From assembly GCA_964016885.1 (NCBI GenBank), contig OZ024744.1, positions 125,984,001-126,048,000 of the forward strand: a stretch of DNA of 64,000 nt, given 5' to 3'. Shown here piece after piece: positions 8,958 to 64,000 of the stretch. Numbering within the stretch: the first letter of the stretch is position 1; each line of letters opens with the position of its first letter. A model generated the notes under the pieces. That model had not been told where the DNA came from. It did no database searches and saw only the letters and a program-made list of their open reading frames with translations. The translations under genes and the position numbers were made by a program. The DNA is from Eledone cirrhosa (lineage: Eukaryota).

Positions 8958-9795
8958 TTTTCTCGACGGCTAGCCGCATTTCGTGATCCGCCTTTCGATT
9001 GCGCTTCCGTCGCGGCAAAAGAATTGCCTTTCCAGACCGCCGTCGCCCGACCGGACCCATGATAGAAGACGTTCGTTACCGTTGGAGCAACGCAAATTAC
9101 TCCTCGGTTGACGCCAAAAACGAACGCCTTCCCGCCTCGCGCCGCCTTCTCCTCGCCGACCCTCGGCCTCGACGATTAGCCACTTTCCGTCACAGCAGTA
9201 GATACGCGTCCGTCGTAATAGCCGTCATTTTAACGCAGGAGAAACGCCTAATTGCCCTGCACCGCGTTTGACGGCGATCTACGACGGCGACGATGCGCGC
9301 ACTCTTCCTTGCTGCGACGAAGGTTTCGGCTTTTCGTCGTGGACCCGGTCAGGTCATGCCGCTGACCTCGCGTTACGGCGACGCGAGAAGACGTTCGTTA
9401 CCGCTGGAGCAACGCAAATTACTCCTCGGTTGACGCCAAAAACGAACGCCTCGCGCCGCCGCTTCCTCCTCGGCCTCGACGATTAGCCGCTTTCCGTCAC
9501 AGCAGTAGATACGCGTCCATCGTAATAGCCGTCATTTTAACGCAGGAGAAACGCCTTGACGACGATATACGACGGGTCGACGACGCGCGCACTCTTTCTG
9601 CTGCGACGAAGGTTTTGGCTTTTCGTTGTGGACCCGGTCGGGTCATGCCTCTGACCTTGCGTTGCGTCGCCACCGCCGCGGCGGGCTTGGGTTTAGCCGT
9701 AGCTACCCTCGTTTTGCCAACGGCGACGCGAGAAGATGTTCGTTACCGCTGGAGCAACGCAAATTACTCCTCGGATGAGGCCAAAAACGAACGCT
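8958..9795 (+). repeat. Diverged paralog of the 172-bp repeat and ETS-like leader, without 18S
   Basis: Shares ttctcgacggctagccgcatttcgtgatccg, gttcgttaccgctggagcaacgcaaattactcctcgg (x3) and ccgtcacagcagtag...gcgacgaagg blocks with 15911-17194. Confidence 0.85.
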
Positions 9796-9873
9796 GAAGA
9801 GATATTGTCCATGGATATCGGGAATTTTACCCGCCCTAGATAGATAGATAGATAGGGATGTATGTATGTATGT

Positions 9874-9915
<42 letters not shown>

Positions 9916-10294
9916 GTATGTATCTTTCTCATTCTCTCTGTATGTATGTATGTATGTATATATATATAATTATATATTTATAGACATCCTGAAAGCTTTT
10001 TAAATGTCTGAGAGATTGGCTAAATATGTTTTGCAGGTATGACCAGTAAGAGAGAGGTAAGTTATTTCAAAACAATTCTTTGACCATTATTTTAAGGTAC
10101 TATCTCAGTGTATTTTTAAATTGACCTCTTGATAGGATGAAATGACCTGTATAATTTTTTTCATATTTAGATGGAATAGAAGAAAAACAAGAAAAATGAA
10201 ATGAATTCAAACAGAAAATATACACCAATGCCAATGGAGGTATGATTTCAGTTTAATCTTAACCTAATGACCACTTTACAGAGTGTACTGGATA

Positions 10295-10377
<83 letters not shown>

Positions 10378-10829
10378 AGGAAGCTCCAACCGTTAAGGTT
10401 GTCTTTCCATTTATTAATATATTGTGTATTTACTCCACTAAACTGTTGAGTGCTTTATATCAGTTATAAAAAAATTTCAGCTTGTTGAATCCCAAAATAG
10501 TTGTTGAAACAGCCACAGCTCAGCCGTCGGGGTCCTGAATATTTATCATATATATATACGTATGAGTGTGTGTGTTTTGAGAATTAATAATTATATAAAC
10601 AAGTTTGTAATGAACAATTTATTTCTTATCAAAACTGTATAAACATGATATTATTTACAGTAAGAATAACAATAATAATGATGGTTTCTAGTAAAGGTGG
10701 AAGGCCAGTAATTTGGGGGAGGGGAAAGTTGATTAAATCGAAGAGAGAAAGAAAGAAAAAACAGAACGGGAAGGAGAGGGGATGGCAAGAGGTCCGGTGT
10801 CGCAGGAGAGAGGGGAGGGTGGTTGAGCT

Positions 10830-11320
10830 TTGAGTCTAGGGCAAGAGGGCAGAAATGCTGCGCCCCACGGATAAGACGGCAAAAATATTCTCGCGGACGA
10901 TGGCCAGAGATACCCAATGCAACAACCACCCAACCTCGCGGTGTTCCCTCCTCAGATGGGCTGCTGACTCTCCGATCTTTTGGAGGAGCTCGGCAGTACA
11001 AGGTCCAAGTACTCCTGGGGTCTCGACGTTGACTGGTGCAGAGAGGAAGTGGCCGGACAATCCTCGGTATTTGTTTATTTTACGTTCTTCTGCGAGGTGG
11101 GCTGCGATGCCGGGGTTTGTGACCGAAACGACTTGGAAACGAAGTTGTAGGCGGAGATTGTGTCGTAGCTGGTGGTGTCCCAGATGAGGGACCTACGTCC
11201 TTCGAATGGGAAGAGAGTGATTCCGTCGGGGCGCTTGCCATCTCCGGGACCTGTTGGCCCCAGTTGTGATGGGAAGCCAGCTGCGTCCAGGCTTCTTCTC
11301 AATATGTCGTTGACAACGAC
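10830..11320 (-). mobile_element. CRE-like RLE non-LTR retrotransposon 3' fragment
   Basis: Frameshifted pieces RRSLDAAGFPS...DGKRPDGITLFPFEGRRSLIWDTT and PVNVETPGVLGP...WVSLAIVREN match CRE-type endonuclease C-termini. Confidence 0.75.
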
Positions 11321-11864
11321 GTGTATCTATTCAATAATTATTTGAATATTGAAATTTTAGGTTTAACTACCTTTTAAACCAAATACATTAAGAAAGGCAT
11401 GACCAACACCACATCATTTTTATTTCTATTTTGAAAGTAGGTTTATAAGTATTAAATTTCAGTAGATTCTTATATCCTTCATGGTGGTCTGGTGGGAGAT
11501 ACGAGAGATGGTGGAGGTTCTGGTCTGGGGTTCAATCCTGCTCAGGAGATACTCTAAGGGGGTTCATACTAAACTTCTTCAGTGTTTCTTATCTCTAGAG
11601 ACAAATATATATACATAAGGTAATCTGGTAAAGTTGTTAGAACATCACATAGAATTCTTTGTAGTATTTTTTCCAGTTCTTCAATCTGAGTTCAACTTTA
11701 CTTTTCTTCCATTCGGGGTTGATAATAACGTACCAGTCAAATACTAGGGGTTAATTCTTCCTCTATATCTCTTTCTCACTCTCTGTCTGTTTTATTAAGA
11801 CCTGGAGAGGTGATGTACTCTACCAGGTTTTATAATGAGTGATGGGGTCATACCTGCCTGCTAC

Positions 11865-12190
11865 ACCTCTGTGTACTAAGTGTAGCATATTATATCCTTG
11901 TTCAGGGCCTTCCTGACATTACTGTGTACTAAGGGTAGCATTTTATATCCTTGTTCAGGGCCATCTTAACATTGCTGTGTACTAAGTGTAGCATATTATA
12001 TCCTTGTTCGGGGCCTTCCTGACATTAGTGTGTACTGAGTGTAGATTTTAACATCCTTGTTCTGGGCCTTCCTAACATTACTGTGTACTGAGTGTAGATT
12101 TTAACATCTTTGTTCAGAGCCTTCCTTACATTACTGTGTACTAAGTGTAGCATTTCATATACTTGTTCTGGGCCTTCCTAACGTTACTGT
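11865..12190 (+). repeat. ~53-bp minisatellite, ~6 copies
   Basis: Repeated ctgtgtactaagtgtagcatattatatccttgttcagggccttcctgacatta. Confidence 0.85.
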
Positions 12191-12965
12191 GGAAATAGTA
12201 GTTTATATCCAATATGTAATATAGATATGGATTCTACAGGACTAAAACTCATTAATATGAGGGGTATTAGTAGATTATATGCCATATTTAATAGAGAAAT
12301 GGCTTCTACAAGACTAAAACTCATTAATATGAGGGGTATTACAGTTTATATGCCATATTTAATACAGAAATGGCTTCTAAAGGACTAGAACTCTTTAAAT
12401 TGAATAAAATAGTAGTATATATCCTATGTTTAATACAGAAATGCCTTCTAAAGGACTCATTAATATGAGGGTATTAGTAGATTATATAACATATTTAATA
12501 CAGAAATGGCTTTTAAATTCAGGGACTCGTTAATTTGATGGAAATAGTAGTGTCTATGCAATATTTAATACAGAAATAGCTTCTACAGGACTAAAACTAA
12601 TTAATATGAGGGGTATTAGTAGTATATGCCATATTTAATACAGAGATGGCTTCTAAATGGAGGTATCTCATTAATTCGATTGAAATGGTAGTGTATATGC
12701 AATATTTAATACAGAAATAGCTTCTACAAGAATAAAACTCATTAATATGAAGGTTATTATTACATTATATGCCATATTTAATACAGAAATCGGTTCTAAA
12801 GGACTAGAACTCTTTAATTCAAATCAAATAGTAGTATAAAGCAATATTTACTACAGAAATGGCTTCTACAAGACTAAAAATCCTTAATATGAGGGGTATT
12901 GTTAGATTATATACCATATTTAATACAGAAATGGCTTCTAAATGAAGAAATCTCTTTAATTCGAT
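12190..12965 (+). repeat. ~71-bp AT-rich minisatellite, ~11 diverged copies
   Basis: Repeated atatttaatacagaaatggcttcta...attaatatgaggggtatt. Confidence 0.85.
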
Positions 12966-13621
12966 AGTAATAGTAATAATAATAATAGTAATAGTAATAA
13001 TACAGCCAATTTTCCACGCAATACTTTTAGTTAGCACCCCGAACGCATAATTGGGAATATAATCACTTATTTCCTAATGTTTGTTGAGTGAGTTGGGAAA
13101 AAAAACTTGGGAAATATATTTTCAGGGTCTCAAAATCTTAAAGAGAAAAAAAAGTCCTGTGGAAGGTAGCAAAACAATTAGGAAGAAAATGGTTTGAAGT
13201 TGGTTGGTGAGTATAAGATTACAGTATCTTGTTGATTTCTATAAAGTTTACTTTTAACTGAATTGGTAAAAATGGATAAATTAGAAGACACAATATAATA
13301 ACTAATATTGTCTTCTAAAACAGGGAATAAAAATATGTTGGTGTATTGGGGGGGGGGGGGGGTAAACATGTGAGTTAATGGGAATGTTTTTGTTTGTTTT
13401 TATTGAAACATATTCAATCTACAGATAGGTTGTTATAGTTATTTAGTCTCGGGTCTGCCATTATCTGCAGATTTATAATTGAGGGGTGTTCCAGGTGTGA
13501 CCACCCTACATTATTCCTAGAGATTGTTACTCCTTCATTCTTCAGTCATCTTGGTCTTCTTATGAGATGGTGGTGTAGTCTTATTTATTGTTAAGGTTAT
13601 GGTCTTCCTTTGTCCACACTC

Positions 13622-13659
<38 letters not shown>

Positions 13660-13899
13660 AAAGGCTTCCTTCTCTGGAAAAAGATGATTTAATATTCACA
13701 ACCATCTGTCTAATTGTTTTCTGATGAGAATAAAGTTAATCTTGCTTGTATGTCTACCTGATCAAATGACTGGCTGATATCTTGAAGTCATTTACACCAC
13801 AGAACTGTAGGAGTCTTGATCCCTCAAGCCATACCTCTAGCCATCATGTACTCCAAAAGAGTCTCACCTTGGTGCTACTCAACATGTCCATTAAATTTA

Positions 13900-14690
13900 G
13901 CAGCAAGGATGCCCTCTTCTTAGTGAGAGACAACTACAAGAGAGGTTCTTAGAGAAGAATAAGCCACTATAGTTAACTTTTGTTGACATAGAGAACCCCG
14001 ATCTGTCATCTGGTGGTCCTTAAGGAAACTAGGTGTAGGGGAATGGCTTGTGAGGACAGTGCAAGCTATGTACAAGGGTGCTGTCAGTAAAGTGAGAGGA
14101 GGAATTCCAGAAACAAAGTAGGTGTACATCAGGGTTCGGTCCTCAGTCCGCTCTTGTTCATTATAGTCCTCCCTCCCTCCCTCCCTCCCTCCCTCCAAGC
14201 CATAACAGAGGAGGAGTAGTTTAAGACTGGATGCCCATGGGAACTTCTCTATGCTGACGATCTGGTTCTTATAGCAGAATCAGTAGAGGAGCTAGCTAGA
14301 GAATAAATTCTGGCTATGGAAACAGCAGTAGTTGGAATCAAGAAGACTGAGAGTGAACCTAGCTAAGACAAAAGTGTTTATAAGTAGAAGAGAGGACAAA
14401 ACTCTGATTCTGTCAGGGAAATGGCCATGTTCGATATGTAGGAAAGGAGTTGGCATAAATTCTATGAAATGTAGTACGCAATGCAGATCTTGGCTACACA
14501 AGAGATGTAGTGGGATAGCAGGAAAACTGACTGACAGGTAGGGAGAAATACGTATGCAGTAGATGTACAGGGAAATTTGACAGAGATTGCAGTGATAGAC
14601 ACATTTTTCAAATGCAGGTGGGATCTATAGAGGGAGTTGATAGCTTCTGATACCTAGGTGATCAGATTAGTAAGGGAGGAGGGTGATATA
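13900..14690 (+). mobile_element. RTE-clade LINE RT fragment (decayed)
   Basis: ccatgggaacttctctatgctgacgatctg (PWELLYADDL) at ~14235, followed by LRVNLAKTK...GKWPCSICRKGVG. Confidence 0.85.
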
Positions 14691-15214
14691 AAATATATTG
14701 TTATCATGACTGTCTTTATTATTTAAATTACCTCTGTCTATTTACAGATTTTACAGAGTGTACTGGGTGCTTTTATGATGGGAGCAGCAACTCTATACGA
14801 TTTTACAGAGTGTACTTGGTGCTTTTATCATGGCACATGGCAGCAGCAGCAGCAGCAACTACGATTTTACAGAGTGTACTTGGTGCTTTTTACTCTGACA
14901 TCAGCACTGAGGAAGTTGTCATATTTTCAGCTAAATTAATGAGTAGAAAAACCAAGTTTCTGCTACAAAAAATTCTCAGATTCAAGGGAGACATTCAGTT
15001 TAAGTATGGTATACTGTCACTAAGGCAGCAAATTGGCAGAGTCGCTAGAATATCAGATAGCATTCTTTACATTATTTGTTTCAGCTCTCTGTTCTCTCAA
15101 TTCAAATCCTGCTCAGGTCAACTTTGCCTTTCATCCATACAAAATAGATTAATAAAAGTACCAGTGTATTACTGGGGTCAATTCTTCTTCTAACTCTTCT
15201 GCACTTCCATTCTC

Positions 15215-15257
<43 letters not shown>

Positions 15258-15499
15258 GCTTCTTTAGAACACATCTGCTGTATTCAGACCTGGAGCGGAG
15301 ATGGGCTCCACCAAGTTTTAAAAATTGCCCTTTAAGCGCTGTATGTCAATATGGTGCCCCTATGATTCCCTCCCTCAGGAGTTATGGGACCATAGATACT
15401 GTCAATTGTAAAGAATAACAGAGATATTCAGTGCTAGTGTGGTGTTCTGTCAGTTGTGGAGATTGATGAATCTAAACAGAAATATCAACAGCACTTTTC

Positions 15500-15680
15500 A
15501 TTTCTGAGTAACACATTTGTTACCAAGTGCTGCATGGCTGGAATGAAAATCAGTGCTGTGAAAACCAAGACATTCATCCTCTCAAGGAAGCTTGTGCAGT
15601 GCACTCTACATGTAAATGGAGTCCCACTGAAGCAGGTAGAAAAGTTCATGTATCTCGAAGCTGTGTTCACGAGTGATGAC
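15500..15680 (+). mobile_element. LINE RT C-terminal fragment (RTE-like)
   Basis: GMKISAVKTK...VNGVPLKQVEKFMYL resembles the GL.IS..KTK...VE.F.YLG thumb region. Confidence 0.55.
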
Positions 15681-15817
15681 AGAGACGGCAAAGGCACAAC
15701 ACACAACAGAAGAAAAGAACAATGACAATTATTATTATTATTATTATTATTATTTGTTTTATTAGTTTTATTATAATAAAAATTGTGCTGTTAGTTTGCT
15801 TGCTATACCATCATGTA

Positions 15818-15910
15818 CCCTAACCCTAAACCTAACCCCAACTCCAACTCTGACCCTAAACCTAACCCCAACCCCAACCCCAACCCTAACCCTAACCCTA
15901 ACCCTAACCC
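15818..15910 (-). repeat. Interstitial telomere-like (TTAGGG)n tract, degenerate distally and perfect proximally
   Basis: ccctaa/ccccaa/cctaa units ending in perfect ccctaaccctaaccctaaccctaaccc abutting the 172-bp array. Confidence 0.85.
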
Positions 15911-16836
15911 ACGATAGAAGACGTTCGTTACCGCTGGAGCAACGCAAATTACTCCTCGGTTGACGCCAAAAACGAACGCCTTCTCGACGGCTAGCCGCAT
16001 TTCGTGATCCGCCTTTCGATTGCGCTTCCGTCGCGGAAAAAGAATTGCCTTTATAGGCCGCCGCCGCCCGACCGGACCCACGATAGAAGACGTTCGTTAC
16101 CGCTGGAGCAACGCAAATTACTCCTCGGTTGACGCCAAAAACGAACGCCTTCTCGACGGCTAGCCGCATTTCGTGATCCGCCTTTCGATTGCGCTTCCGT
16201 CGCGGAAAAAGAATTGCCTTTATAGGCCGCCGCCGCCGCCCGACCGGACCCACGATAGAAGACGTTCGTTACCGCTGGAGCAACGCAAATTACTCCTCGG
16301 TTGACGCCAAAAACGAACGCCTTCTCGACGGCTAGCCGCATTTCGTGATCCGCCTTTCGATTGCGCTTCCGTCGCGGAAAAAGAATTGCCTTTATAGGCC
16401 GCCGCCGCCGCCCGACCGGACCCACGATAGAAGACGTTCGTTACCGCTGGAGCAACGCAAATTACTCCTCGGTTGACGCCAAAAACGAACGCCTTCTCGA
16501 CGGCTAGCCGCATTTCGTGATCCGCCTTTCGATTGCGCTTCCGTCGCGGAAAAAGAATTGCCTTTATAGGCCGCCTCCGCCGCCCGACCGGACCCACGAT
16601 AGAAGACGTTCGTTACCGCTGGAGCAACGCAAATTACTCCTCGGTTGACGCCAAAAACGAACGCCTTCTCGACGGCTAGCCGCATTTCGTGATCCGCCTT
16701 TCGATTGCGCTTCCGTCGCGGAAAAAGAATTGCCTTTATAGGCCGCCGCCGCCCGACCGGACCCACGATAGAAGACGTTCGTTACCGCTGGAGCAACGCA
16801 AATTACTCCTCGGTTGACGCCAAAAACGAACGCCTT
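15911..16836 (+). repeat. 169/172-bp GC-rich tandem repeat (5 full copies plus a partial), rDNA spacer/ETS-type subrepeat
   Basis: Unit starts acgatagaag at 15911, 16080, 16252, 16424, 16596 and 16765; units differ in (GCC)n length; lies ~360 bp upstream of the 18S 5' end. Confidence 0.9.
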
Positions 16837-17194
16837 CCGGTTCGGGCGACGTAAAAGTCTGTAGCCTTTTCGCCGATCCTCGACGATTATCCGCCTTCCG
16901 AACAACCGCCTTTCCGCCGTCACAGCAGTAGGTACTCGTCCGTCGTAATAGCCGTCATTTTAATGCAGGAGAAACGCCTAAATGCACTGCGATTGACGAC
17001 GATCTACGACGCGCTTACTCTTCCTTGCTGCGACGAAGGTTTCGTTCGGCTTTTCGTCGTGGACCCGGTCAGGTCATGCCGCTGATCTCGCGTTGCGTCG
17101 TTACCGCTGGAGCAACGCAAATTACTCCTCGTTTAACGCCAACATCGAACGCGCTTCGGTTCTCGGTCGTCGTTGTTTTGTTTCGTGCGGAAGA
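16837..17194 (+). other. 5' ETS-like leader
   Basis: GC/CpG-rich sequence immediately 5' of the 18S start; assignment is positional. Confidence 0.6.
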
Positions 17195-17380
17195 TACCTG
17201 GGTGATCCTGCCAGTAGTCATATGCTTGTCTCAAAGCTTAAGCCATGCAAGTGGAAGTTCATGCCGTAAACGAAAATGGTGAAACCGCGAATGGCTCAGG
17301 AACCGGATCTAATCCTCGGGACCGTATTCCTCACCGCGAGGAGAGGATAACTGTGGCAATTCTAGAGCTAATACATGCAA
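17195..17380 (+). pseudogene. 18S rRNA 5' end fragment
   Basis: TACCTGGgTGATCCTGCCAGTAGTCATATGCTTGTCTCAAAGcTTAAGCCATGCA...GGTGAAACCGCGAATGGCTCA...GGATAACTGTGGCAATTCTAGAGCTAATACATGC matches the conserved eukaryotic SSU start. Colinearity is lost after ~185 nt. Confidence 0.95.
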
Positions 17381-17384
17381 TTGA

Positions 17385-20300
17385 GATCGGAGAGGGAGCG
17401 ATCCGTCTGCTTGATTCCGATAACGAACGAGACATTCGTATCCGAAAGAACGTTTGTCTGGAAACTGGTGCAGTCAGTGAGTCGAAAAAAAAATATCTCG
17501 GTGGTAGTAGCAAATATTCGAACGAGACATTCGTATGCGAAAGAAAAATATCTCGGTGGTAGTAGCAAATATTCGAACGAGACATTCGTATGCGAAAGAA
17601 CGTTTGTCTGGAAGTGGCGATCCATGCCCGGTGGATAGTTGGTTCCGGGTTTTACTATGATTGTTGCAAAACAGAAACTTAAAGGGATTGACAGAATTTG
17701 CGATTCCGGAGAGAGGGCGATCCGTCTGCTTGATTCCGATAACGAACGAGACATTCGTATCCGAAAGAACGTTTGTCTGGAAACTGGTGAGTCAGTGAGT
17801 CGAAAAAAAAATATCTCGGTGGTAGTAGCAAATATTCGTATGCGAAAGAAAAGATCTCGGTGGTAGTAGCAAATATTCGAACGAGACATTCGTAGGCGAA
17901 AGAAAAATATCTCGGTGGTAGTAGCAAATATTCGAACGAGACATTCGTATGCGAAAGAACGTTTGTCGGTGGTTGTAGCAAATATTCGAACGAGACATTC
18001 GTATGCGAAAGAACGTTTGTCTGGAAGTGGCGATCCATGCCCGGTGGATAGTTGGTTCCGGGTTTTACTATGATTGTTGCAAAACAGAAACTTAAAGGGA
18101 TTGACAGAATTTGCGATTACGGAGAGGGGGCGATCCGTCTGCTTGATTCCGATAACGAACGAGACATTCGTATCCGAAAGAACGTTTGTCTGGAAACTGG
18201 TGAGTCAGTGAGTCGAAAAAAAAATATCTCGGTGGTAGTAGCAAATATTCGAACGAGACATTCGTATGCGAAAGAACGTTTGTCGGTGGTAGTAGCAAAT
18301 ATTCGAACGAGACATTCGTATGCGAAAGAACGTTTGTCTGGAAGTGGCGATCCATGCCCGGTGGATAGTTGGTTCCGGGTTTTACTATGATTGTTGCAAA
18401 ACAGAAACTTAAAGGGATTGACAGAATTTGCGATTACGGAGAGGGGGCGATCCGTCTGCTTGATTCCGATAACGAACGAGACATTCGTATCCGAAAGAAC
18501 GTTTGTCTGGAAACTGGTGAGTCAGTGAGTCGAAAAAAAAATATCTCGGTGGTAGTAGCAAATATTCGTATGCGAAAGAAAAGATCTCGGTGGTAGTAGC
18601 AAATATTCGAACGAGACATTCGTAGGCGAAAGAAAAATATCTCGGTGGTAGTAGCAAATATTCGAACGAGACATTCGTATGCGAAAGAACGTTTGTCGGT
18701 GGTAGTAGCAAATATTCGAACGAGACATTCGTATGCGAAAGAACGTTTGTCGGTGGTAGTAGCAAATATTCGAACGAGACATTCGTATGCGAAAGAACGT
18801 TTGTCTGGAAGTGGCGATCCATGCCCGGTGGATAGTTGGTTCCGGGTTTTACTATGATTGTTGCAAAACAAAAACTTAAAGGGATTGACAGAATTTGCGA
18901 TTCCGGAGAGAGGGCGATCCGTCTGCTTGATTCCGATAACGAACGAGACATTCGTATCCGAAAGAACGTTTGTCTGGAAACTGGTGAGTCAGTGAGTCGA
19001 AAAAAAAATATCTCGGTGGTAGTAGCAAATATTCGAACGAGACATTCGTATGCGAAAGAACGTTTGTCGGTGGTAGTAGCAAATATTCGAACGAGACATT
19101 CGTATGCGAAAGAACGTTTGTCTGGAAGTGGCGATCCATGCCCGGTGGATAGTTGGTTCCGGGTTTTACTATGATTGTTGCAAAACAGAAACTTAAAGGG
19201 ATTGACAGAATTTGCGATTCCGGAGAGAGGGCGATCCGTCTGCTTGATTCCGATAACGAACGAGACATTCGTATCCGAAAGAACGTTTGTCTGGAAACTG
19301 GTGAGTCAGTGAGTCGAAAAAAAAATATCTCGGTGGTAGTAGCAAATATTCGAACGAGACATTCGTATGCGAAAGAACGTTTGTCGGTGGTAGTAGCAAA
19401 TATTCGAACGAGACATTCGTATGCGAAAGAACGTTTGTCGGTGGTAGTAGCAAATATTCGAACGAGACATTCGTATGCGAAAGAACGTTTGTCTGGAAAC
19501 TGGTGAGTCAGTGAGTCGAAAAAAAAATATCTCGGTGGTAGTAGCAAATATTCGAACGAGACATTCGTATGCGAAAGAAAAATATCTCGGTGGTAGTAGC
19601 AAATATTCGAACGAGACATTCGTATGCGAAAGAACGTTTGTCTGGAAGTGGCGATCCATGCCCGGTGGATAGTTGGTTCCGGGTTTTACTATGATTGTTG
19701 CAAAACAGAAACTTAAAGGGATTGACAGAATTTGCGATTCCGGAGAGGGGGCGATCCGTCTGCTTGATTCCGATAACGAACGAGACATTCGTATCCGAAA
19801 GAACGTTTGTCTGGAAACTGGTGAGTCAGTGAGTCGAAAAAAAAAATATCTCGGTGGTAGTAGCAAATATTCGAACGAGACATTCGTATGCGAAAGAACG
19901 TTTGTCGGTGGTAGTAGCAAATATTCGAACGAGACATTCGTATGCGAAAGAACGTTTGTCGGTGGTAGTAGCAAATATTCGAACGAGACATTCGTATGCG
20001 AAAGAACGTTTGTCTGGAAGTGGCGATCCATGCCCGGTGGATAGTTGGTTCCGGGTTTTACTATGATTGTTGCAAAACAGAAACTTAAAGGGATTGACAG
20101 AATTTGCGATTCCGGAGAGAGGGCGATCCGTCTGCTTGATTCCGATAACGAACGAGACATTCGTATCCGAAAGAACGTTTGTCTGGAAACTGGTGAGTCA
20201 GTGAGTCGAAAAAAAAATATCTCGGTGGTAGTAGCAAATATTCGAACGAGACATTCGTATGCGAAAGAAAAATATCTCGGTGGTAGTAGCAAATATTCGA

Positions 20301-21775
20301 ACGAGACATTCGTATGCGAAAGAACGTTTGTCTGGAAGTGGCGATCCATGCCCGGTGGATAGTTGGTTCCGGGTTTTACTATGATTGTTGCAAAACAGAA
20401 ACTTAAAGGGATTGACAGAATTTGCCATTCCGGAGAGGGGGCGATCCGTCTGCTTGATTCCGATAACGAACGAGACATTCGTATCCGAAAGAACGTTTGT
20501 CTGGAAACTGGTGAGTCAGTGAGTCGAAAAAAAAATATCTCGGTGGTAGTAGCAAATATTCGTATGCGTAAGAAAAGATCTCGGTGGTAGTAGCAAATAT
20601 TCGAACGAGACATTCGTATTCGAAAGAACGTTTGTCTGGAAGTTGCGATCCATGCCCGGTGGATAGTTGGTTCCGGGCTTTACTATGATTGTTGCAAAAC
20701 AGAAACTTAAAGGGATTGACAGAATTTGCGATTCCGGAGAGGGGGCGATCCGTCTGCTTGATTTCGATAACGAACGAGACATTCGTATCCGAAAGAACGT
20801 TTGTCTGGAAACTGGTGAGTCAGTGAGTCGAAAAAAAAAATATCTCGGTGGTAGTAGCAAATATTCGAACGAGACATTCGTATGCGAAAGAACGTTTGTC
20901 GGTGGTAGTAGCAAATATTCGAACGAGACATTCGTATGCGAAAGAACGTTTGTCGGTGGTAGTAGCAAATATTCGAACGAGACATTCGTATGCGAAAGAA
21001 CGTTTGTCTGGAAGTGGCGATCCATGCCCGGTGGATAGTTGGTTCCGGGTTTTACTATGATTGTTGCAAAACAGAAACTTAAAGGGATTGACAGAATTTG
21101 CGATTCCAGAGAGAGGGCGATCCGTCTGCTTGATTCCGATAACGAACGAGACATTCGTATCCGAAAGAACGTTTGTCTGGAAACTGGTGAATCAGTGAGT
21201 CGAAAAAAAAATATCTCGGTGGTAGTAGCAAATATTCGAACGAGACATTCGTATGCGAAAGAACGTTTGTCGGTGGTAGTAGCAAATATTCGAACGAGAC
21301 ATTCGTATGCGAAAGAACGTTTGTCTGGAAGTGGCGATCCATGCCCGGTGGATAGTTGGTTCCGGGTTTTACTATGATTGTTGCAAAACAAAAACTTAAA
21401 GGGATTGACAGAATTTGCGATTCCGGAGAGGGGGCGATCCGTCTGCTTGATTCCGATAACGAACGAGACATTCGTATCCGAAAGAACGTTTGTCTGGAAA
21501 CTGGTGAGTCAGTGAGTCGAAAAAAAAATATCTCGGTGGTAGTAGCAAATATTCGTATGCGAAAGAAAAGATCTCGGTGGTAGTAGCAAATATTCGAACG
21601 AGACATTCGTATGCGAAAGAAAAATATCTCGGTGGTAGTAGCAAATATTCGAACGAGACATTCGTATTCGAAAGAACGTTTGTCTGGAAGTTGCGATCCA
21701 TGCCCGGTGGATAGTTGGTTCCGGGCTTTACTATGATTGTTGCAAAACAGAAACTTAAAGGAATTGACAGAATTT
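17385..21775 (+). repeat. rRNA-mosaic satellite: ~12 units of ~300-520 bp with a variable number of internal 54/55-bp subrepeats
   Basis: Units contain 18S motifs (cgattccggagag, ttccgataacgaacgagac, gaaacttaaagg(g/a)attgac) and the 28S motif atctcggtggtagtagcaaatattcgaacgaga. Unit markers at 17639, 18052, 18369, 18836, 19153, 19673, 20045, 20363, 20667, 21039, 21356 and ~21715. Confidence 0.92.
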
Positions 21776-21789
21776 TCGAATCGACATCA

Positions 21790-22165
21790 ACTCGGCTACG
21801 GCTATCCCGTCGAGTACGAGAGTATCGCGGGATCAGAGCAACGGTTTGCTAGGCTGCCTCTGAGCGATAACGGCTGAACGCCTCCTCTAAGCCGGAACCC
21901 TAGCCGGACCCGAGTTGTTTTTCGACAAGCGTCTCGACCTTCTTAAGGCCCATGCCTTAGTTTGGCGATTGCCGTCCGTTCGCCGACGGCGGCAGCGTCA
22001 GCGGAAATGCCATTCTGTGACGACTACGACGATTCGTCGTCGTCGTCGTCCATTCGATTTCCTGAAAGAGATAGAGACTAAAGTGATCAAATTGTTCGGA
22101 GTTACGTGCTTAGTAGAGCAGCTACCACACTGCAATCTATTGAGAGTTTTCTGACGAACGATACA
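21790..22165 (+). pseudogene. 28S rRNA 3' end fragment, including a sarcin-ricin-loop-like hairpin
   Basis: AGTACGAGAG in a paired stem at 21804-21833; ggctgaacgcct(cct)ctaagcc at ~21872; tagtagagcagctacc...ctgcaatctattgaga at 22111-22146, like the LSU 3' terminal helix. Confidence 0.85.
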
Positions 22166-22545
22166 ATCCGCCCACGTGGCGCCAGAAAGGGAGAAGAAAA
22201 GAAAAGTTAGACGCCGCCGATCGATCGGTTCGTTGTTTTACGTGTACACAGCTTGTGTGTGTGTCTGTATGTGATACAAGCCGCCTATCCGTCTTCCAAG
22301 TAAGTTTTGTGTGTAGACTGCGGAAAGAAATCCAATCCGCCGTCTAGGCGGTTCTGCCGCCGACCCATACTTTTGCGAGTCGCTCCCGGGAAAGACAGGC
22401 GGCAAGACGGCGTGTATACACGACGCCTTCCGTCTTCCGCCTCGAACCCGGGCAAACGTTCCTTTATTCGTCCACGCCTTCCCGCTTCGATCGCGAGAAA
22501 GTAATCAATCTGTTTTGTGTGTGTGTCTGTGTGTGATACAAATTT
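22165..22545 (+). other. 3' ETS/spacer-like GC-rich segment
   Basis: CpG-rich sequence directly downstream of the 28S 3' end, with duplicated tgtgtgtgtgtctgt.tgtgatacaa (~22254, ~22516). Positional assignment. Confidence 0.45.
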
Positions 22546-22699
22546 GTTTTCTTAATTTGATAACCATGAATTGTTTCAACACCGGCCCTTTTAAGGGCCA
22601 CTTATATTTTCAATAATCAGTTTAAATGGGTTGCACCGTAGCCACTTGGTAATACACTGCAAATCTCCCGTCAATCTATGAAGGTTTTGTAGTAGATTA

Positions 22700-23025: not shown

Positions 23026-23580
23026 CCAGTGTATTACTGGTACTTTATTTTATCGACCCCCATAAGGATGAAAGGCAAAGTTAACTGTGCAATAACAAAG
23101 GGAGATAACCTCGTCTTTTTTTTTTTACGGAGTTATTTCCCTTTAAATTTTATCTATTACTTATGATGATACAATTTAATCAGTTCTTAGCTGTCGAGAC
23201 ACTGCATCCTTTAAAACCTCCATGGAACAAGCTACCTGCAACAGTTGTTAGCTGTCGAGACACTGCATCTTTTAAAACCTCCATGGAACAAACTACCTGC
23301 ATCAGTTGTTAGGGTCTGAGTTCAAATCACGCCGAGGAGGTTAACTTTGCCTTTCATCCTTACGGGGTCGGTCGGAAAACGAACCATTCCCGGTTCGCTT
23401 TCGAAGCGGGTTTCCGAAAACAGCGCTTCTCTCGACCGGGCCCGTCGTCCGCTCGGCGGTGGTTTTCATCGTCCCAGGCACGGCTAACAGGCGGAGACGG
23501 GACAAACGCGCGTGTTCCTTTTTTTATCAGCCGCAGCGCCGTTCGTATATATGCTTAGGTTGTTTTTTTTTTAAATATCC

Positions 23581-23810
23581 TAAGTTAAGTTGGGGCTAAG
23601 TTAAGTTGGGGCTAAGTTAAGTTGAGGTTAAGTTGAGTTGGGGTTAAGTTAAGTGGGGGTTAAGTTAAGCTGGGGTTAAGTTAAGTTGAGGTTAAGTTAA
23701 GTTGGGGTTAAGTCAAGTTGGGGTTAAGTTAAGTTGGGGTTAAGTTAGGTTGGGGTTAAGTTAGGTTGGGGTTAAGTTAAGTTGGGGTTAAGTTAGGTTG
23801 CGGTTAAGTT
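23581..23810 (+). repeat. G-rich 16-bp tandem repeat (GGGGTTAAGTTAAGTT)n, telomere-like, ~14 copies
   Basis: taagttaagttggggt(t/c) repeated, with ttagg variants. Confidence 0.9.
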
Positions 23811-26800
23811 ACATTCGCCGCCGGACTTCAGCTTCCTCATTTAGCATGGGCAGTTTTTCTTGAAAATCACACCACACACAGCAAATGTGTGTCCGCACAT
23901 GTACCAGTAATTACAGATCGATTCCGGTGAAAATTCACTGAAAACGGGCCATCCGGCCCTGTGCGTCGATCGTGGGCCGGCCGGATGTTGACGGATCGAT
24001 GTGTAATTAGAAGTACATGTGCGGACACTCATTGGCTGTGCGTGGTATGCATTTCAGCAAGATATCTCCGTAACATCAAGAGTTATGGCTGTGGAGGCAC
24101 ACCTAGTCAAACGTAAACAAGGTCTGGAGCGTTTACGCTTCGCGATTTTGTTTACGTTTGACTAGGTGTGCCTCCACAGCCACAACTCTTGATGTTACGG
24201 AGATATCTTGCTGAAATGCATACCGCGCACAGCCAATGAGTGTCCGCACATGTACTTCTAATTACACATCGATCCGTCAACATCCGGCCGGCCCACGATC
24301 GACGCACAGGGCCGGATGGCCCGTTTTCAGTGAATTTTCAACGGAATCGATCTGTAATTACTGGTACATGTGCGGAGACACATTTGCTGTGTGTGGTGTG
24401 ATTTTCAAGAAAAACTGCCCATGCTAAATGAGGAAGCTGAAGTCCGCCGGCGAATGGTGTGCTTCGAAGAAAACTAATTCGAAAATGACCGTTTGCAGGC
24501 GGAGTAACCTTTTCGATCGTGGGCCAGCCGCCCGTGGTGGGATCCATCTGTAATTACTGGTACATGTGCGGACATACATTTGCTGTGTGTGGTGTGATTT
24601 TCAAGAAGAACTGCCCATGCTAAATGAGGAAGCTGAAGTCCGCCGGCGAATGGTGTGCTTCGAAGAAAACTAATTCGAAAATGACCGTTTGCAGGCGGGG
24701 TAACCTTTTCGATCGTGGGCCAGCCGCCCGTGGTGGGATCCATCTGTAATTACTGGTACATGTGCGGACACACATTTGCTGTGTGTGGTGTGATTTTCGA
24801 GAAAGACTGCCCATGCTAAATGAGGAAGCTGAAGTCCGCCGGCGAATGGTGTGCTTCGAAGAAAACTAATTCGAAAATGACTATTTGCCGGCGGAATCAC
24901 CTTTTCGGTCCTGGTCCGGCCGGATCTTGCCGGATCGATCGGAAATTTGTGGACCATGTTCGGAAGGCCATTGTGCATGTGTGGTGAAAAAAATTTGTGT
25001 CGAAATCTTCTCGGAAAATAACGGATCGCCGGCGGAGATTGCCATTTCGATCGTGGGCCGGCCGGATCTTGTCGGATCGATTCGGACATATGTGCATCGT
25101 GTTCGCAAGGCCCTTGTCTATGTGTGGTGTGATTTTCATAAAGAAATTCCGAAAAACCCAGTTTTAAATCTGATTTCGCCAAAGAATTTTGGCTATCAGA
25201 TCGGGTTGAAAGGTATGGTTTCAGGTCGATCTGAAAGTCTAAAATGGAATTCACTCGGTTAGCTAACTATTGATATATCGGAGATATCTTTCTGAAAATC
25301 ACACCACACACTCCCAATGAGTGTCTGCACATGTACCAGTAATTACAGATGGATCCCACCACGGGCGGCCGGCCCACGATCGAAAAGGTTACTCCGAAGC
25401 ACACCATTCGCCGGCGGAATTCATTTAGCATGGGCAGTTTTTCTCGAAAATCACACCACACACAGCCAATGAGTGTCCGCACATGTACCAGTAATTACAG
25501 ATGGATCCCACCACGGGCGGCTGGCCCACGATCGAAAAGGTTACTCCGCCTGCAAACGGTCATTTTCGAATTAGTTTTCTTCGAAGCACACCATTCGCCG
25601 GCGGACTTCAGCTTCCTCATTTAGCATGGGCAGTTTTTCTCGAAAATCACACCACACACAGCAAATGTGTGTCCGCACATGTACCAGTAATTACAGATCG
25701 ATTCCGGTGAAAATTCACTGAAAACGGGCCATTCTGCCCTGTGCGTCGATCGTGGGCCGGCCGGATGTTGACGGATCGATGTGTAATTAGAAGTACATGT
25801 GCGGACACTCATTGGCTGTGCGTGGTATGCATTTCAGCAAGATATCTCCGTAACATCAAGAGTTATGGCTGTGGAGGCACACTTAGTCAAACGTAAACAA
25901 GCTCTGGAGCGTATACGCTTCGCGATTTTGTTTACGTTTGACTAGGTGTGCCTCCACAGCCACAACTCTTGATGTTACGGAGATATCTTGCTGAAATGCA
26001 TACCACGCACAGCCAATGAGTGTCCGCACATGTACTTCTAATTACACATCGATCCGTCAACATCCGGCCGGCCCACGATCGACGCACAGGGCCGGATGGC
26101 CCGTTTTCAGTGAATTTTCACCGGAATCGATCTGTAATTACTGGTACATGTGCGGACACACATTTGCTGTGTGTGGTGTGATTTTCACGAAAAACTGCCC
26201 ATGCTAAATGAGGAAGCTGAAGTCCGCCGGCGAATGGTGTGCTTCGAAGAAAACTAATTCGAAAATGACCGTTTGCAGGCGGAGTAACCTTTTCGATCGT
26301 GGGCCAGCCGCCCGTGGTGGGATACATCTGTAATTACTGGTACATGTGCGGACACACATTTGCTGTGTGTGGTGTGATTTTCGAGAAAGACTGCCCATGC
26401 TAAATGAGGAAGCTGAAGTCCGCCGGCGAATGGTGTGCTTCGAAGAAAACTAATTCGAAAATGACTATTTGCCGGCGGAATCACCTTTTCGGTCCTGGTC
26501 CGGCCGGATCTTGCCGGATCGATCGGAAATTTGTGGACCATGTTCGGAAGGCCATTGTGCATGTGTGGTGAAAAAAATTTGTGTCGAAATCTTCTCGGAA
26601 AATAACGGATCGCCGGCGGAGATTGCCATTTCGATCGTGGGCCGGCCGGATCTTGTCGGATCGATTCGGACATATGTGCATCGTGTTCGCAAGGCCCTTG
26701 TCTATGTGTGGTGTGATTTTCATAAAGAAATTCCGAAAAACCCAGTTTTAAATCTGATTTCGCCAAAGAATTTTGGCTATCAGATCGGGTTGAAAGGTAT

Positions 26801-60732: not shown

Positions 60733-61292
60733 GCTTCTTTAGAACACATCTGCTGTATTCAGACCTGGAGCGGAGATGGGCTCCACCAAGTTTTAAAAAT
60801 TGCCCTTTAAGCGCTGTATGTCAATATGGTGCCCCTATGATTCCCTCCCTCAGGAGTTATGGGACCATAGATACTGTCAATTGTAAAGAATAACAGAGAT
60901 ATTCAGTGCTAGTGTGGTGTTCTGTCAGTTGTGGAGATTGATGAATCTAAACAGAAATATCAACAGCACTTTTCATTTCTGAGTAACACATTTGTTACCA
61001 AGTGCTGCATGGCTGGAATGAAAATCAGTGCTGTGAAAACCAAGACATTCATCCTCTCAAGGAAGCTTGTGCAGTGCACTCTACATGTAAATGGAGTCCC
61101 ACTGAAGCAGGTAGAAAAGTTCATGTATCTCGAAGCTGTGTTCACGAGTGATGACAGAGACGGCAAAGGCACAACACACAACAGAAGAAAAGAACAATGA
61201 CAATTATTATTATTATTATTATTATTATTTGTTTTATTAGTTTTATTATAATAAAAATTGTGCTGTTAGTTTGCTTGCTATACCATCATGTA

Positions 61293-61385
61293 CCCTAACC
61301 CTAAACCTAACCCCAACTCCAACTCTGACCCTAAACCTAACCCCAACCCCAACCCCAACCCTAACCCTAACCCTAACCCTAACCC
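61293..61385 (-). repeat. Interstitial telomere-like tract (copy B)
   Basis: Matches 15818-15910. Confidence 0.85.
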
Positions 61386-62483
61386 ACGATAGAAGACGTT
61401 CGTTACCGCTGGAGCAACGCAAATTACTCCTCGGTTGACGCCAAAAACGAACGCCTTCTCGACGGCTAGCCGCATTTCGTGATCCGCCTTTCGATTGCGC
61501 TTCCGTCGCGGAAAAAGAATTGCCTTTATAGGCCGCCGCCGCCCGACCGGACCCACGATAGAAGACGTTCGTTACCGCTGGAGCAACGCAAATTACTCCT
61601 CGGTTGACGCCAAAAACGAACGCCTTCTCGACGGCTAGCCGCATTTCGTGATCCGCCTTTCGATTGCGCTTCCGTCGCGGAAAAAGAATTGCCTTTATAG
61701 GCCGCCGCCGCCCGACCGGACCCACGATAGAAGACGTTCGTTACCGCTGGAGCAACGCAAATTACTCCTCGGTTGACGCCAAAAACGAACGCCTTCTCGA
61801 CGGCTAGCCGCATTTCGTGATCCGCCTTTCGATTGCGCTTCCGTCGCGGAAAAAGAATTGCCTTTATAGGCCGCCGCCGCCGCCCGACCGGACCCACGAT
61901 AGAAGACGTTCGTTACCGCTGGAGCAACGCAAATTACTCCTCGGTTGACGCCAAAAACGAACGCCTTCTCGACGGCTAGCCGCATTTCGTGATCCGCCTT
62001 TCGATTGCGCTTCCGTCGCGGAAAAAGAATTGCCTTTATAGGCCGCCGCCGCCGCCCGACCGGACCCACGATAGAAGACGTTCGTTACCGCTGGAGCAAC
62101 GCAAATTACTCCTCGGTTGACGCCAAAAACGAACGCCTTCTCGACGGCTAGCCGCATTTCGTGATCCGCCTTTCGATTGCGCTTCCGTCGCGGAAAAAGA
62201 ATTGCCTTTATAGGCCGCCGCCGCCGCCCGACCGGACCCACGATAGAAGACGTTCGTTACCGCTGGAGCAACGCAAATTACTCCTCGGTTGACGCCAAAA
62301 ACGAACGCCTTCTCGACGGCTAGCCGCATTTCGTGATCCGCCTTTCGATTGCGCTTCCGTCGCGGAAAAAGAATTGCCTTTATAGGCCGCCGCCGCCGCC
62401 CGACCGGACCCACGATAGAAGACGTTCGTTACCGCTGGAGCAACGCAAATTACTCCTCGGTTGACGCCAAAAACGAACGCCTT
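61386..62483 (+). repeat. 169/172-bp tandem repeat, 6 full copies plus a partial (copy B)
   Basis: Starts at 61386, 61555, 61724, 61896, 62068, 62240 and 62412. Confidence 0.9.
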
Positions 62484-62841
62484 CCGGTTCGGGCGACGTA
62501 AAAGTCTGTAGCCTTTTCGCCGATCCTCGACGATTATCCGCCTTCCGAACAACCGCCTTTCCGCCGTCACAGCAGTAGGTACTCGTCCGTCGTAATAGCC
62601 GTCATTTTAATGCAGGAGAAACGCCTAAATGCACTGCGATTGACGACGATCTACGACGCGCTTACTCTTCCTTGCTGCGACGAAGGTTTCGTTCGGCTTT
62701 TCGTCGTGGACCCGGTCAGGTCATGCCGCTGATCTCGCGTTGCGTCGTTACCGCTGGAGCAACGCAAATTACTCCTCGTTTAACGCCAACATCGAACGCG
62801 CTTCGGTTCTCGGTCGTCGTTGTTTTGTTTCGTGCGGAAGA

Positions 62842-63027
62842 TACCTGGGTGATCCTGCCAGTAGTCATATGCTTGTCTCAAAGCTTAAGCCATGCAAGTG
62901 GAAGTTCATGCCGTAAACGAAAATGGTGAAACCGCGAATGGCTCAGGAACCGGATCTAATCCTCGGGACCGTATTCCTCACCGCGAGGAGAGGATAACTG
63001 TGGCAATTCTAGAGCTAATACATGCAA
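62842..63027 (+). pseudogene. 18S rRNA 5' end fragment (copy B)
   Basis: Same as 17195-17380, including the same non-canonical bases. Confidence 0.95.
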
Positions 63028-63031
63028 TTGA

Positions 63032-64000
63032 GATCGGAGAGGGAGCGATCCGTCTGCTTGATTCCGATAACGAACGAGACATTCGTATCCGAAAGAACGT
63101 TTGTCTGGAAACTGGTGCAGTCAGTGAGTCGAAAAAAAAATATCTCGGTGGTAGTAGCAAATATTCGAACGAGACATTCGTATGCGAAAGAACGTTTGTC
63201 TGGAAGTGGCGATCCATGCCCGGTGGATAGTTGGTTCCGGGTTTTACTATGATTGTTGCAAAACAGAAACTTAAAGGGATTGACAGAATTTGCGATTCCG
63301 GAGAGGGGGCGATCCGTCTGCTTGATTCCGATAACGAACGAGACATTCGTATCCGAAAGAACGTTTGTCTGGAAACTGGTGAGTCAGTGAGTCGAAAAAA
63401 AAAATATCTCGGTGGTAGTAGCAAATATTCGAACGAGACATTCGTATGCGAAAGAACGTTTGTCGGTGGTAGTAGCAAATATTCGAACGAGACATTCGTA
63501 TGCGAAAGAACGTTTGTCTGGAAGTGGCGATCCATGCCCGGTGGATAGTTGGTTCCGGGTTTTACTATGATTGTTGCAAAACAGAAACTTAAAGGGATTG
63601 ACAGAATTTGCGATTCCGGAGAGAGGGCGATCCGTCTGCTTGATTCCGATAACGAACGAGACATTCGTATCCGAAAGAACGTTTGTCTGGAAACTGGTGA
63701 GTCAGTGAGTCGAAAAAAAAATATCTCGGTGGTAGTAGCAAATATTCGTATGCGAAAGAAAAGATCTCGGTGGTAGTAGCAAATATTCGAACGAGACATT
63801 CGTAGGCGAAAGAAAAATATCTCGGTGGTAGTAGCAAATATTCGAACGAGACATTCGTATGCGAAAGAACGTTTGTCGGTGGTAGTAGCAAATATTCGAA
63901 CGAGACATTCGTATGCGAAAGAACGTTTGTCGGTGGTAGTAGCAAATATTCGAACGAGACATTCGTATGCGAAAGAACGTTTGTCTGGAAGTGGCGATCC
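63032..64000 (+). repeat. rRNA-mosaic satellite (copy B, cut by the window end)
   Basis: Same 18S/28S mosaic units with a different subrepeat arrangement. Confidence 0.92.

Follow-up and report, generated by a model that had tools for sequence, protein, structure and literature searches.

Architecture of the element

The window, meaning the whole stretch of 64,000 nucleotides of Eledone cirrhosa DNA that was analysed, holds an rDNA-derived element in the order leader, 18S rRNA nt 1–191, 4.4-kb mosaic, last ~460 nt of the 28S rRNA and spacer (Table 1). The intact rDNA units of the same genome (on C12, C25, C4 and C6, found by BLAST) were taken as the reference, together with one rDNA unit with an uninterrupted R2 site, and donor positions were numbered on the species' own genes, the 18S being 2,876 nt long. 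In most of the assembled 28S copies the R2 site is occupied by an element, and it is uninterrupted in one 28S copy of the assembly. Rfam matches to a ribozyme in the R2-site insertion did not go beyond chance level.

Table 1. Positions in the window of the element, its parts and the neighbouring features.
Feature	Position	Strand	Remarks
Second rDNA island of the macro-unit, rearranged 5′ ETS pieces	8959..9794	+	after a short telomere-like tract
Telomere-like (ACCCTA)n tract	15817..15910	+	TRF; at the place of the promoter region, abuts the leader directly
172-bp tandem repeat, 5.4 copies	15907..16837	+	amplified from likely 5′ ETS
Remaining leader	16838..17195	+	match to intact ETS
18S rRNA nt 1–191	17196..17385	+	4 substitutions/188, two 2-nt indels
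Mosaic satellite	17386..21783	+	11 units of ~317–480 bp, TRF
18S 581–592 joined to 18S 2042–2080	17388..17433	+	5-nt overlap at joint
ITS1 289–307	17435..17453	+	19 nt exact
Stretch without assignable rDNA donor, 41 nt	17454..17494	+	ends in an A-run
28S 2083–2116	17495..17528	+	34 nt exact
28S 1392–1413, 18S 1843–1900, 18S 575–587, in that order	17612..17713	+	donor match
28S 3′ end (last ~460 nt)	21784..22172	+	31 substitutions/385 (8%)
3′ ETS/spacer pieces	22173..22542	+	collinear match, then 33-nt backward piece
Half of a dispersed fold-back repeat with histone H4 3′ stem-loop	22543..22623	+	Rfam Histone3, 36.6 bits
Third rDNA island, ~200 nt of interior 28S (23376–23581)	23376..23811	+	then 16-bp G-rich telomere-like repeat
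Next copy of the element, its start	61292..64000	+	45.6 kb downstream, 5′ junction 63021, next macro-unit

Comparison by BLAST with the intact units and the unit with the uninterrupted R2 site agreed with the original prediction of an outer 45S frame in the right order, opened by the first nucleotides of the 18S (191, close to the ~185 expected) and closed by the 28S 3′ end. Apart from these two pieces, complete 18S, 5.8S and 28S genes in order were absent. The 5.8S and the ITS had both been reported as missing, which held for the 5.8S (longest shared word, 11 nt) but not for the ITS, because the exact ITS1 piece is present. Upstream, the ETS match reaches back to 15907, adjoining the telomere-like tract, and the leader is made up of an ETS piece at 16878–17100, an extra copy of the ETS repeat at 17098–17157 and the final ~45 nt of the ETS, with ~840 nt of the intact ETS missing. 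The 172-bp repeats, which differ from the intact rDNA by 7 substitutions in 175 positions, had been described as spacer-type; since they match sequence that in the intact unit follows the last TATATAGGG-type motif, with the repeat starting ~220 nt 3′ of this motif, they are instead likely to be 5′ ETS. This array is rich in CpG (o/e 1.79), and it also carries a TATA-like change. At the other end, 78 nt of the 28S are missing through five deletions (1, 26, 33, 15 and 3 nt), and the collinear 3′ match stops ~100 nt 5′ of the next TATATAGGG-type motif. Overall, the frame differs from the intact rDNA by 2–8%, with no CpG-type changes at the 75 CpGs of the 5′ part. Substitutions in the 18S piece (4/188) and the leader (21/442) did not differ significantly (Fisher P = 0.18), in a test with little power in which the trend was towards fewer changes in the 18S. 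Rfam matches on the element were limited to the rRNA ends and the histone stem-loop.

The interior measures 4,404 nt in 11 units, in line with the ~4.4 kb of sense tandem units originally predicted, and consists of tandem scraps of 12–60 bases from 18S, ITS1 and 28S, out of order and all on the sense strand. The four motifs that had been assigned to 18S or 28S were mapped in sense to 18S 575–592, 18S 1843–1900 (6 substitutions and 4 nt inserted), 18S 2042–2080 and 28S 2083–2116, while a fifth rRNA piece, 28S 1392–1413, scored 32 against a shuffle maximum for donor scores of 25–26. A donor in rDNA was assigned for 251 of the 315 bases of the first unit; for the 41-nt stretch the best scores were 18, inside the shuffle range. 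Six of the seven mosaic pieces come from rRNA and not from spacer, the 18S 575–587 piece being exact over 13 nt, and the ITS1 piece stands after 18S and 28S pieces. Moreover, each unit holds two to five copies of a ~54-bp subunit of 28S and ITS1, and the last 10 nt of the 28S piece (28S 2107–2116) are a word shared with 18S 2071–2080.

Overlaps of 5, 10, 4 and 6 nt were found in 4 of 13 joint readings, for which donors were chosen post hoc, one row having a mis-assigned donor and four being blurred by nearby changes; the 6-nt joint is equally readable as one substitution. Between random pairs, the overlap reached 4, 5 and 10 nt at frequencies of 0.022, 0.007 and 0.00014, respectively. Four joints had one or two extra bases in place of an overlap. 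Two short matches, one of 9 nt between the 3′ joint and 28S 1900 and one of 11 nt to 18S 1976, were discarded as being at chance level or accounted for by one substitution. Furthermore, a mosaic unit folded no better than its shuffles (z = −0.23). Protein coding of the mosaic was rejected, the long open frames being stop-to-stop frames in repeats, and a scan of eight other open frames gave LINE domains only. A role as decoy for R2-site elements was likewise rejected, no word of 8 nt or longer being shared between the element and either flank of the R2 site, as were C/D snoRNA-like antisense guides, none of which was seen by eye directly 5′ of box D or matched in Rfam.

Copies and macrosatellite

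At least 59 copies of the element were found through exact 5′ junctions on eight contigs, the exact junction counts in the assembly being 59 and 61. A total of 43 of the 5′ junctions belong to one array with a ~38-kb period on C28, which extends over at least 1.78 Mb between two assembly gaps of 200 N; among the matches listed, no intact-type 18S or 5.8S match fell on C28. Repetition is thus nested at three levels (~54 bp, ~320–480 bp and ~38 kb). The 5′ frame (567 nt) had no mismatch in 31 of 39 other copies and one mismatch in the remaining 8, whereas interior length ranged from 739 to 19,025 nt (26-fold) in 57 paired copies. Parsing into units covered 40 of the 59 copies and gave 527 head-to-tail units, identical blocks being 344 of 481 and 453 of 569, with unit patterns that differ from copy to copy; copy L070 was left out of the counts, as its 3′ junction lay beyond the fetched stretch. 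The gene loss, copy number and near-identical frames all support the earlier view of an rDNA derivative that makes no ribosomes and has been amplified and homogenised.

The copies examined, including that on C18, share macro-unit flanks and are not dispersed at unrelated sites. DNA derived from rDNA makes up the minor share of each macro-unit, which also holds retroelement debris and a 196-bp satellite flanking the relic. In the C28 copies a histone-type stem-loop above the Rfam cut-off stands ~35 nt beyond the rDNA end on the same strand, with no histone ORF at 22543..22623. Its fold-back repeat, compared across contexts on C2, C7 and C18, is cut ~14 nt downstream, and the C18 copy has no stem-loop. 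One 28S word occurs 2,278 times without mismatch in the assembly, the intact type being seen in only 18 of the first 100 listed.

An assembly artefact would fit with the two gaps flanking the array and with a true rDNA array so poorly assembled that one uninterrupted R2 site is found in it. However, unit patterns vary among copies on eight contigs, and the original prediction had named independent data as the check: mosaic junctions were present in contigs of all four public runs examined, where one X1 contig spans the 3′ junction and one X4 contig spans four pieces, both without difference. An artefact is therefore largely refuted and highly improbable.

The sequence was carried by 20 runs in 17 studies under 17 organism labels, none on record as RNA; the four runs examined are contigs without a library record. 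The absence of RNA runs is no evidence either way on expression. In three runs with other organism labels (X4, X12 and X17) the pieces had a depth of 2–19, reaching ~70–90 at most for the short subunit, and matched the common letters of E. cirrhosa, with one flank contig showing no difference. Conservation across species was accordingly rejected; with 4 of the 20 runs examined, the low depth and the match to this genome's common letters are read as traces of DNA from E. cirrhosa itself or from a species very near to it.

Promoter, origin and possible activity

The start site of the intact unit was placed by a motif resembling the arthropod consensus, which it fits only in part (PMC2590618, as far as the available text goes). 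Motifs of the TATATAGGG type numbered 29 in the C12 stretch and 0 in the window, and the likely core promoter region had no match in the window at word size 7 and E ≤ 1, contrary to the Pol I promoter on whose retention the predicted transcription had depended. The element looks to lack its likely Pol I promoter, because it begins 3′ of the motif at the likely Pol I start and stops short of the next such motif. In addition, the ~710-bp spacer-promoter repeats, likely enhancer equivalents, are represented in it by one partial piece.

Both ends of the element lie just inside this promoter-free interval, from which all three rDNA islands derive in sense. The element is probably a collapsed rDNA unit that has lost the likely Pol I promoter, with scraps of rRNA amplified in a ~38-kb macrosatellite, and a likely inert passenger. 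The short pieces would have been fused by a series of deletions assisted by microhomology, or by template switching during replication, between rDNA units lying head to tail; all of them would be in sense because a 'backward' joint from 28S to 18S in a tandem array would amount to a forward deletion that reaches the following unit. Slippage and unequal exchange would then have expanded the junction region, for which the shared 10-nt word may have served as a ready direct repeat, and further unequal exchange would have multiplied relic, retroelement debris and 196-bp satellite as one block. Without a promoter, the relic would make no pre-rRNA and would evolve free of rRNA constraint.

An origin within the promoter-free interval also fits selection against promoter-bearing copies, or an RNA template. 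Non-LTR reverse transcriptases can jump between templates, and an enzyme moving between fragments of pre-rRNA or rRNA could have yielded a chimeric cDNA that was inserted and amplified into an inert satellite. Such an origin would account for an element covering almost exactly the interval from +220 to −100, for the sense orientation of every island and for the extra bases at four joints, in a genome where most assembled 28S copies hold an R2-site element. Nevertheless, neither a TSD nor a poly(A) or retroelement tail was seen on reading the ends of the element, although such hallmarks, if old, could have been lost, and the element takes in spacer that lies 2 kb past the end of the 28S. DNA end joining, too, typically leaves overlaps of 5–10 nt and extra bases, and an RNA-templated origin is unlikely.

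The collapsed, likely inert unit may still show some Pol II firing, which is possible because the 172-bp array is CpG-rich and has the TATA-like change. Transcription in a fuller sense, by Pol II from these repeats or by read-through, would give RNA with rRNA core motifs, or small RNAs acting on rRNA or rDNA, and the repeat RNA would perhaps be cut at the captured histone stem-loop. The sense orientation of all pieces, the predominance of rRNA among them, the position and strand of the stem-loop in the C28 copies and the retained CpGs are consistent with this, but the Pol I promoter is not recognisable, the stem-loop belongs to a dispersed, truncated repeat and was lost from the C18 copy, folding gave no signal and length varies 26-fold among copies, and such transcription seems quite improbable.

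A natural pseudo-NOR, or another chromosomal structure of non-transcribed rDNA-like DNA to which UBF and Pol I factors bind or by which the chromosome is anchored at the nucleolus, would need no promoter, and at the level of motifs the array appears to have none. Synthetic pseudo-NORs are described, in the text available, as promoterless and untranscribed, formed from an array of 1.4 Mb, with UBF binding widely over rDNA repeats (PMC3923965). The array here is at least 1.78 Mb long, and the depth in run X1 was 4,103–4,171 for contigs identical to the relic 28S tail against 3,373–3,594 for those with intact-28S letters, a rough hint that is no copy number. Against such a structure, the spacer-promoter repeats are gone save the one piece and rDNA is the smaller share of the macro-unit, and it is judged quite improbable.

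Relation to known rDNA-derived repeats

The element is an rDNA-derived satellite, forming head-to-tail arrays of a monomer with rDNA homology that has been amplified apart and has diverged. It does not belong with the IGS-derived subtype, as its monomer comes from 18S, ITS1 and 28S and its 172-bp repeat from likely 5′ ETS, nor with retroposed rRNA copies (SINE28-like or processed chimeras), which call for a TSD or 3′ tail and dispersed copies. The 5S rRNA gene is a Pol III gene. Satellites derived from it, namely PcP190 in frogs and a centromeric one in Hoplias (by titles cited in PMC12692304), also have an rRNA-gene monomer, but from one small donor gene and not from three regions of the 45S unit. 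The IGS-derived satellites of tomato, potato, Vicia and Phaseolus (excerpts of PMC2679016 and PMC12692304) likewise go back to a decayed 45S unit and owe their spread to recombination, followed by homogenisation; however, there a spacer subrepeat was amplified and rRNA coding sequence eliminated, whereas the monomer of the element is made of rRNA-coding scraps and it is the spacer-promoter repeats that were lost. Mobilised 28S/18S fragments of Bembidion beetles (bioRxiv 10.1101/2020.01.03.894527) resemble the element in that coding pieces were amplified far above the functional rDNA, outside the NOR, and diverge, although they were recognised by peaks of copy number and by FISH signal across many chromosomes, and the portion available describes no scrambled multi-donor monomer, frame or macrosatellite. 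The Capsicum 'mega-satellite' (Grabiele et al. 2018, as cited in PMC13655049) is a big repeat that also takes in parts of the coding region and internal spacers, with larger fragments by that description, in contrast to 12–60-nt pieces out of order in a nested periodicity. Human rDNA pseudogenes (PMC5381670, in part) are displaced and decaying units too, but they decay in place, while the element was scrambled internally and then re-amplified to near identity. Finally, synthetic XEn arrays (PMC3923965, in part) are megabase promoterless arrays with rDNA-related sequence as well, composed of enhancer UBF-binding sites and with UBF binding shown, whereas the comparison made here is one of sequence and the spacer repeats are mostly gone.

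The claim that no satellite of this build had been described met no contradiction in the papers searched, which gave no monomer of out-of-order rRNA-coding pieces (satellite catalogues in paper supplements could hold a similar one). Satellites derived from rDNA as such are known, coding-region ones included. In the best reading, the scrambled build is new within a class already known, and for a likely inert satellite it is unusual.

It appears improbable that a dead rDNA unit was recycled as a chromosome-scale decoy, as pseudo-NOR or as an rRNA-mimic RNA closed by the H4 stem-loop that would titrate nucleolar factors or seed small RNAs. If this were true, the RNA would be multivalent and the small RNAs would tune rDNA dosage; in the array one conserved 28S motif occurs more than 2,200 times, while the real genes in the assembly number a few dozen. 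Counts of rDNA copies, FISH and primer-based assays would be misled by the element, given the exact matches of one 28S word and the small share of the intact type among those first listed. The locus is a base-resolved record of the change from rDNA unit to satellite, in which donors, joints and three levels are readable with the parent in the same genome, and it offers a natural test case, in an animal, for UBF binding and nucleolar association of rDNA-like arrays that have no promoter.

Frame and mosaic interior of the element

The collapsed unit was compared with intact rDNA taken from four chromosomes of the 3.0-Gb assembly, using the gene coordinates of contig C12, whose intact unit had an 18S of 2,876 nt, one 5.8S and one long 28S according to Rfam. 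Alignment to the genome's own rDNA bore out the original prediction of an rDNA outer frame with a scrambled 18S/28S interior, since the element was collinear with intact units through the leader, 18S 1-191, the last ~460 nt of the 28S and the spacer. As most assembled units were interrupted at the R2 site, the comparison was redone on the sole uninterrupted unit, and the outcome was unchanged. The interior (4,404 nt) was composed of sense-strand pieces, with donors assigned for 251 of the 315 bases of the first mosaic unit and none found in rDNA for a 41-nt stretch of it. No 5.8S sequence was found in the element, as had been claimed, while the claimed absence of ITS did not hold, an ITS1 piece being present in the mosaic.

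Coordinates of the mosaic donor pieces and associated features (window positions unless a contig is named; G000, this assembly; L015, a stretch fetched from C12)
Feature	Location	Strand
Mosaic donor piece	18S 575-592	sense
Mosaic donor piece	18S 2042-2080	sense
Mosaic donor piece	ITS1 289-307	sense
Mosaic donor piece	28S 2083-2116	sense
Mosaic donor piece	28S 1392-1413	sense
Mosaic donor piece	18S 1843-1900	sense
Telomere-like repeats at rDNA islands	8929-8958, 15817-15910, 23581-23811	
Telomere-like tract apart from rDNA	5987-6322	
Fold-back repeat	22543-22623; G000:C18:4.9-12.7 Mb, C2, C7, C17, C19	
LINE	2618-5489	minus
Array of 1,584-bp unit	23812-43872	
196-bp satellite, further array	C1, 279.70 Mb	
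R2-site insertion	L015:957-2208 (C12); C25, C4, C6	
Macro-unit repeat	6038-16837 and 51567-62312	
Main junction cluster	C28, 124.72-126.45 Mb	
Outlying macro-unit copy	G000:C18:6.67-6.76 Mb	

Overlaps of 5, 10, 4 and 6 nt were found in four of 13 joint readings, the 6-nt one being explicable also as a single substitution, and of 3 nt in one more. Random pairs overlapped by ≥4 nt in 2.2% of draws and by 10 nt in 0.014%, a comparison in which the donors were picked post hoc. Four of the 13 readings were blurred, and 1-2 extra bases appeared at four, one with a mis-assigned donor and another giving a second way to read the 10+4 joint. The clearest joint was a 10-nt word common to 18S 2071-2080 and 28S 2107-2116, which in the mosaic leads into the same ITS1 piece. 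Moreover, three distinct joints ran backwards along the rDNA unit; each would correspond to a forward deletion into the next unit of a head-to-tail array, which would explain why all pieces are in sense. The element is probably a promoterless, functionless relic, in which an rDNA unit would have collapsed through microhomology-assisted joins between tandem units, slippage and unequal exchange later driving its expansion at levels of ~54 bp, ~320-480 bp and ~38 kb.

Regarding the other rDNA loci, an insertion of 1.18-1.24 kb sat precisely at the R2 target site in five of the seven 28S copies examined, and the remaining two began alike, the 5′ start being nearly common to all seven. Its longest frame was 137 aa, no ribozyme in it matched Rfam, and we take it to resemble a non-autonomous R2-type element; only one R2 site in the assembly was uninterrupted. 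Units were scattered over C1-C25 (28 above-cut-off 5.8S matches on nine chromosomes, most of them isolated or in clusters of ≤3), and the main rDNA array appears to be unassembled.

Promoter region and functional readings

In intact units, the TATTATATAGGG motif occurred once per ~710-bp spacer repeat, the final copy lying 2.2 kb upstream of the 18S. It fits in part the arthropod start-site consensus and the spacer-promoter motif of PMC2590618, and from this partial fit the motif is a putative mark of the Pol I start. The element began ~220 nt downstream of the last motif, with the match to the spacer stopping ~100 nt short of the next. Neither the motif (zero in the 64-kb window) nor its ~250-nt surroundings (BLAST, word size 7) had a match in the window, so that the kept Pol I promoter considered in the original prediction was not recovered, with the start placed by the motif. 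As the element starts past the last motif and the promoter region is missing, the 172-bp repeats, previously read as spacer-type, are likely amplified 5′ ETS. The close fit to the promoter-free interval would suit an RNA-templated origin, which nevertheless lacks the hallmarks of retroposition and is considered unlikely. A natural pseudo-NOR would not require a promoter, according to the accessible part of PMC3923965, and is judged slightly less likely still.

A putative functional repeat RNA is equally doubtful. The 18S piece had 4/188 substitutions vs 21/442 in the leader (p = 0.18, a test with little power), giving no clear sign of constraint, and a mosaic unit folded no better than its shuffles. 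One substitution fell at 18S position 8, presumably a near-invariant site. CpG decay was minimal in the element, so long-term methylation is not indicated.

A histone-type stem-loop lay 35 nt beyond the element's end, being half of a dispersed fold-back repeat whose 3′ sequence is common with an H4 gene; it was truncated at the element and missing from the C18 copy. The fold-back repeat comprised two opposed H4 3′ stem-loop copies, 70 bp apart, with no gene, and 137 exact stem-loop matches were found genome-wide, many on C18. On the other side, a telomere-like tract directly abutted the 172-bp repeats. All three rDNA islands of the macro-unit adjoined such repeats, C-rich 5′ and G-rich 3′, the polarity expected for capped broken ends; since a comparable tract occurs apart from rDNA, this may be coincidence.

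Amplification of the macro-unit and public sequencing runs

The window held most of one macro-unit and the beginning of the next, the repeated stretch showing 99.0% identity. Its interspersed repeats appear octopus-like. Exact matches to the 5′ and 3′ junctions numbered 59 and 61, of which 43 and 44 lay in the C28 cluster and the remainder on C18 and unplaced contigs, with a median spacing of 37.8 kb. The array (1.78 Mb) was flanked by two 200-N gaps, so its size and copy counts are lower bounds. Interiors of 57 paired copies ranged from 739 to 19,025 nt (sum, 332 kb), and 527 mosaic units were found in the parsed copies (40/59). Among the 39 other copies, the 5′ frame was free of mismatches in 31 and had a single one in 8, while the 3′ frame had ≤1 mismatch in 34/35, the exception being the rearranged C18 copy; inside the mosaic, 344/481 and 453/569 blocks were identical. 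The element had thus been rightly described as amplified and homogenised. Relative to intact rDNA, the leader and 18S had diverged by 2-4% and the 28S tail by 8%, and these values, set against the near-identical copies, indicate a founding event much older than the latest homogenisation. Furthermore, an intact-type 18S word had 23 matches in the assembly, and a 28S word of the short subunit had 2,278, the intact type making up 18 among the first 100 matches listed.

The outlying C18 copy was single and rearranged, its main parts 94-99.8% identical, with the element truncated within the 28S tail. The LINE, whose two frames encode endonuclease and reverse transcriptase domains, was missing from the second macro-unit, so that the macro-units differ by its insertion. 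The ~20 kb of 1,584-bp unit, containing a long internal palindrome, were made of a 196-bp satellite in either orientation, for which 4,571 exact word matches were counted, and represent a candidate centromere array.

Between 30 and 76% of sampled mosaic words were present in 20 public runs (17 studies), and mosaic joints were recovered in contigs of all four runs examined, which argues against the assembly artefact raised as a check; the structure is real and well defined. In run X1, possibly the source sample and hence not independent evidence, depth was 4,103-4,171 for contigs that matched the relic's tail and the flank beyond without a difference, and 3,373-3,594 for those carrying the intact-28S letters. 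The even depth continuing into the flank suggests that the signal is DNA, and the similar depths, which are not a copy number, hint at a roughly equal abundance of the relic and real rDNA. The other three runs had it at low depth.

Relation to known rDNA-derived repeats

In the accessible parts of the sources, satellites derived from the spacer or from 5S rDNA are well documented (PMC12692304; PMC2679016), amplified pieces of rDNA coding regions are found in Bembidion (bioRxiv 10.1101/2020.01.03.894527, 10.1101/2020.05.22.111252) and the Capsicum mega-satellite (PMC13655049), degraded units occur in human (PMC5381670) and SINE28 carries 28S pieces (PMC10946416). A build like the relic's is not described in those of PMC10257491 and PMC7348932, and no scrambled multi-donor rDNA monomer was found in the literature searched, whose scope left out most subscription papers and supplements. 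The element is an rDNA-derived satellite DNA of a new variant build, probably devoid of function.
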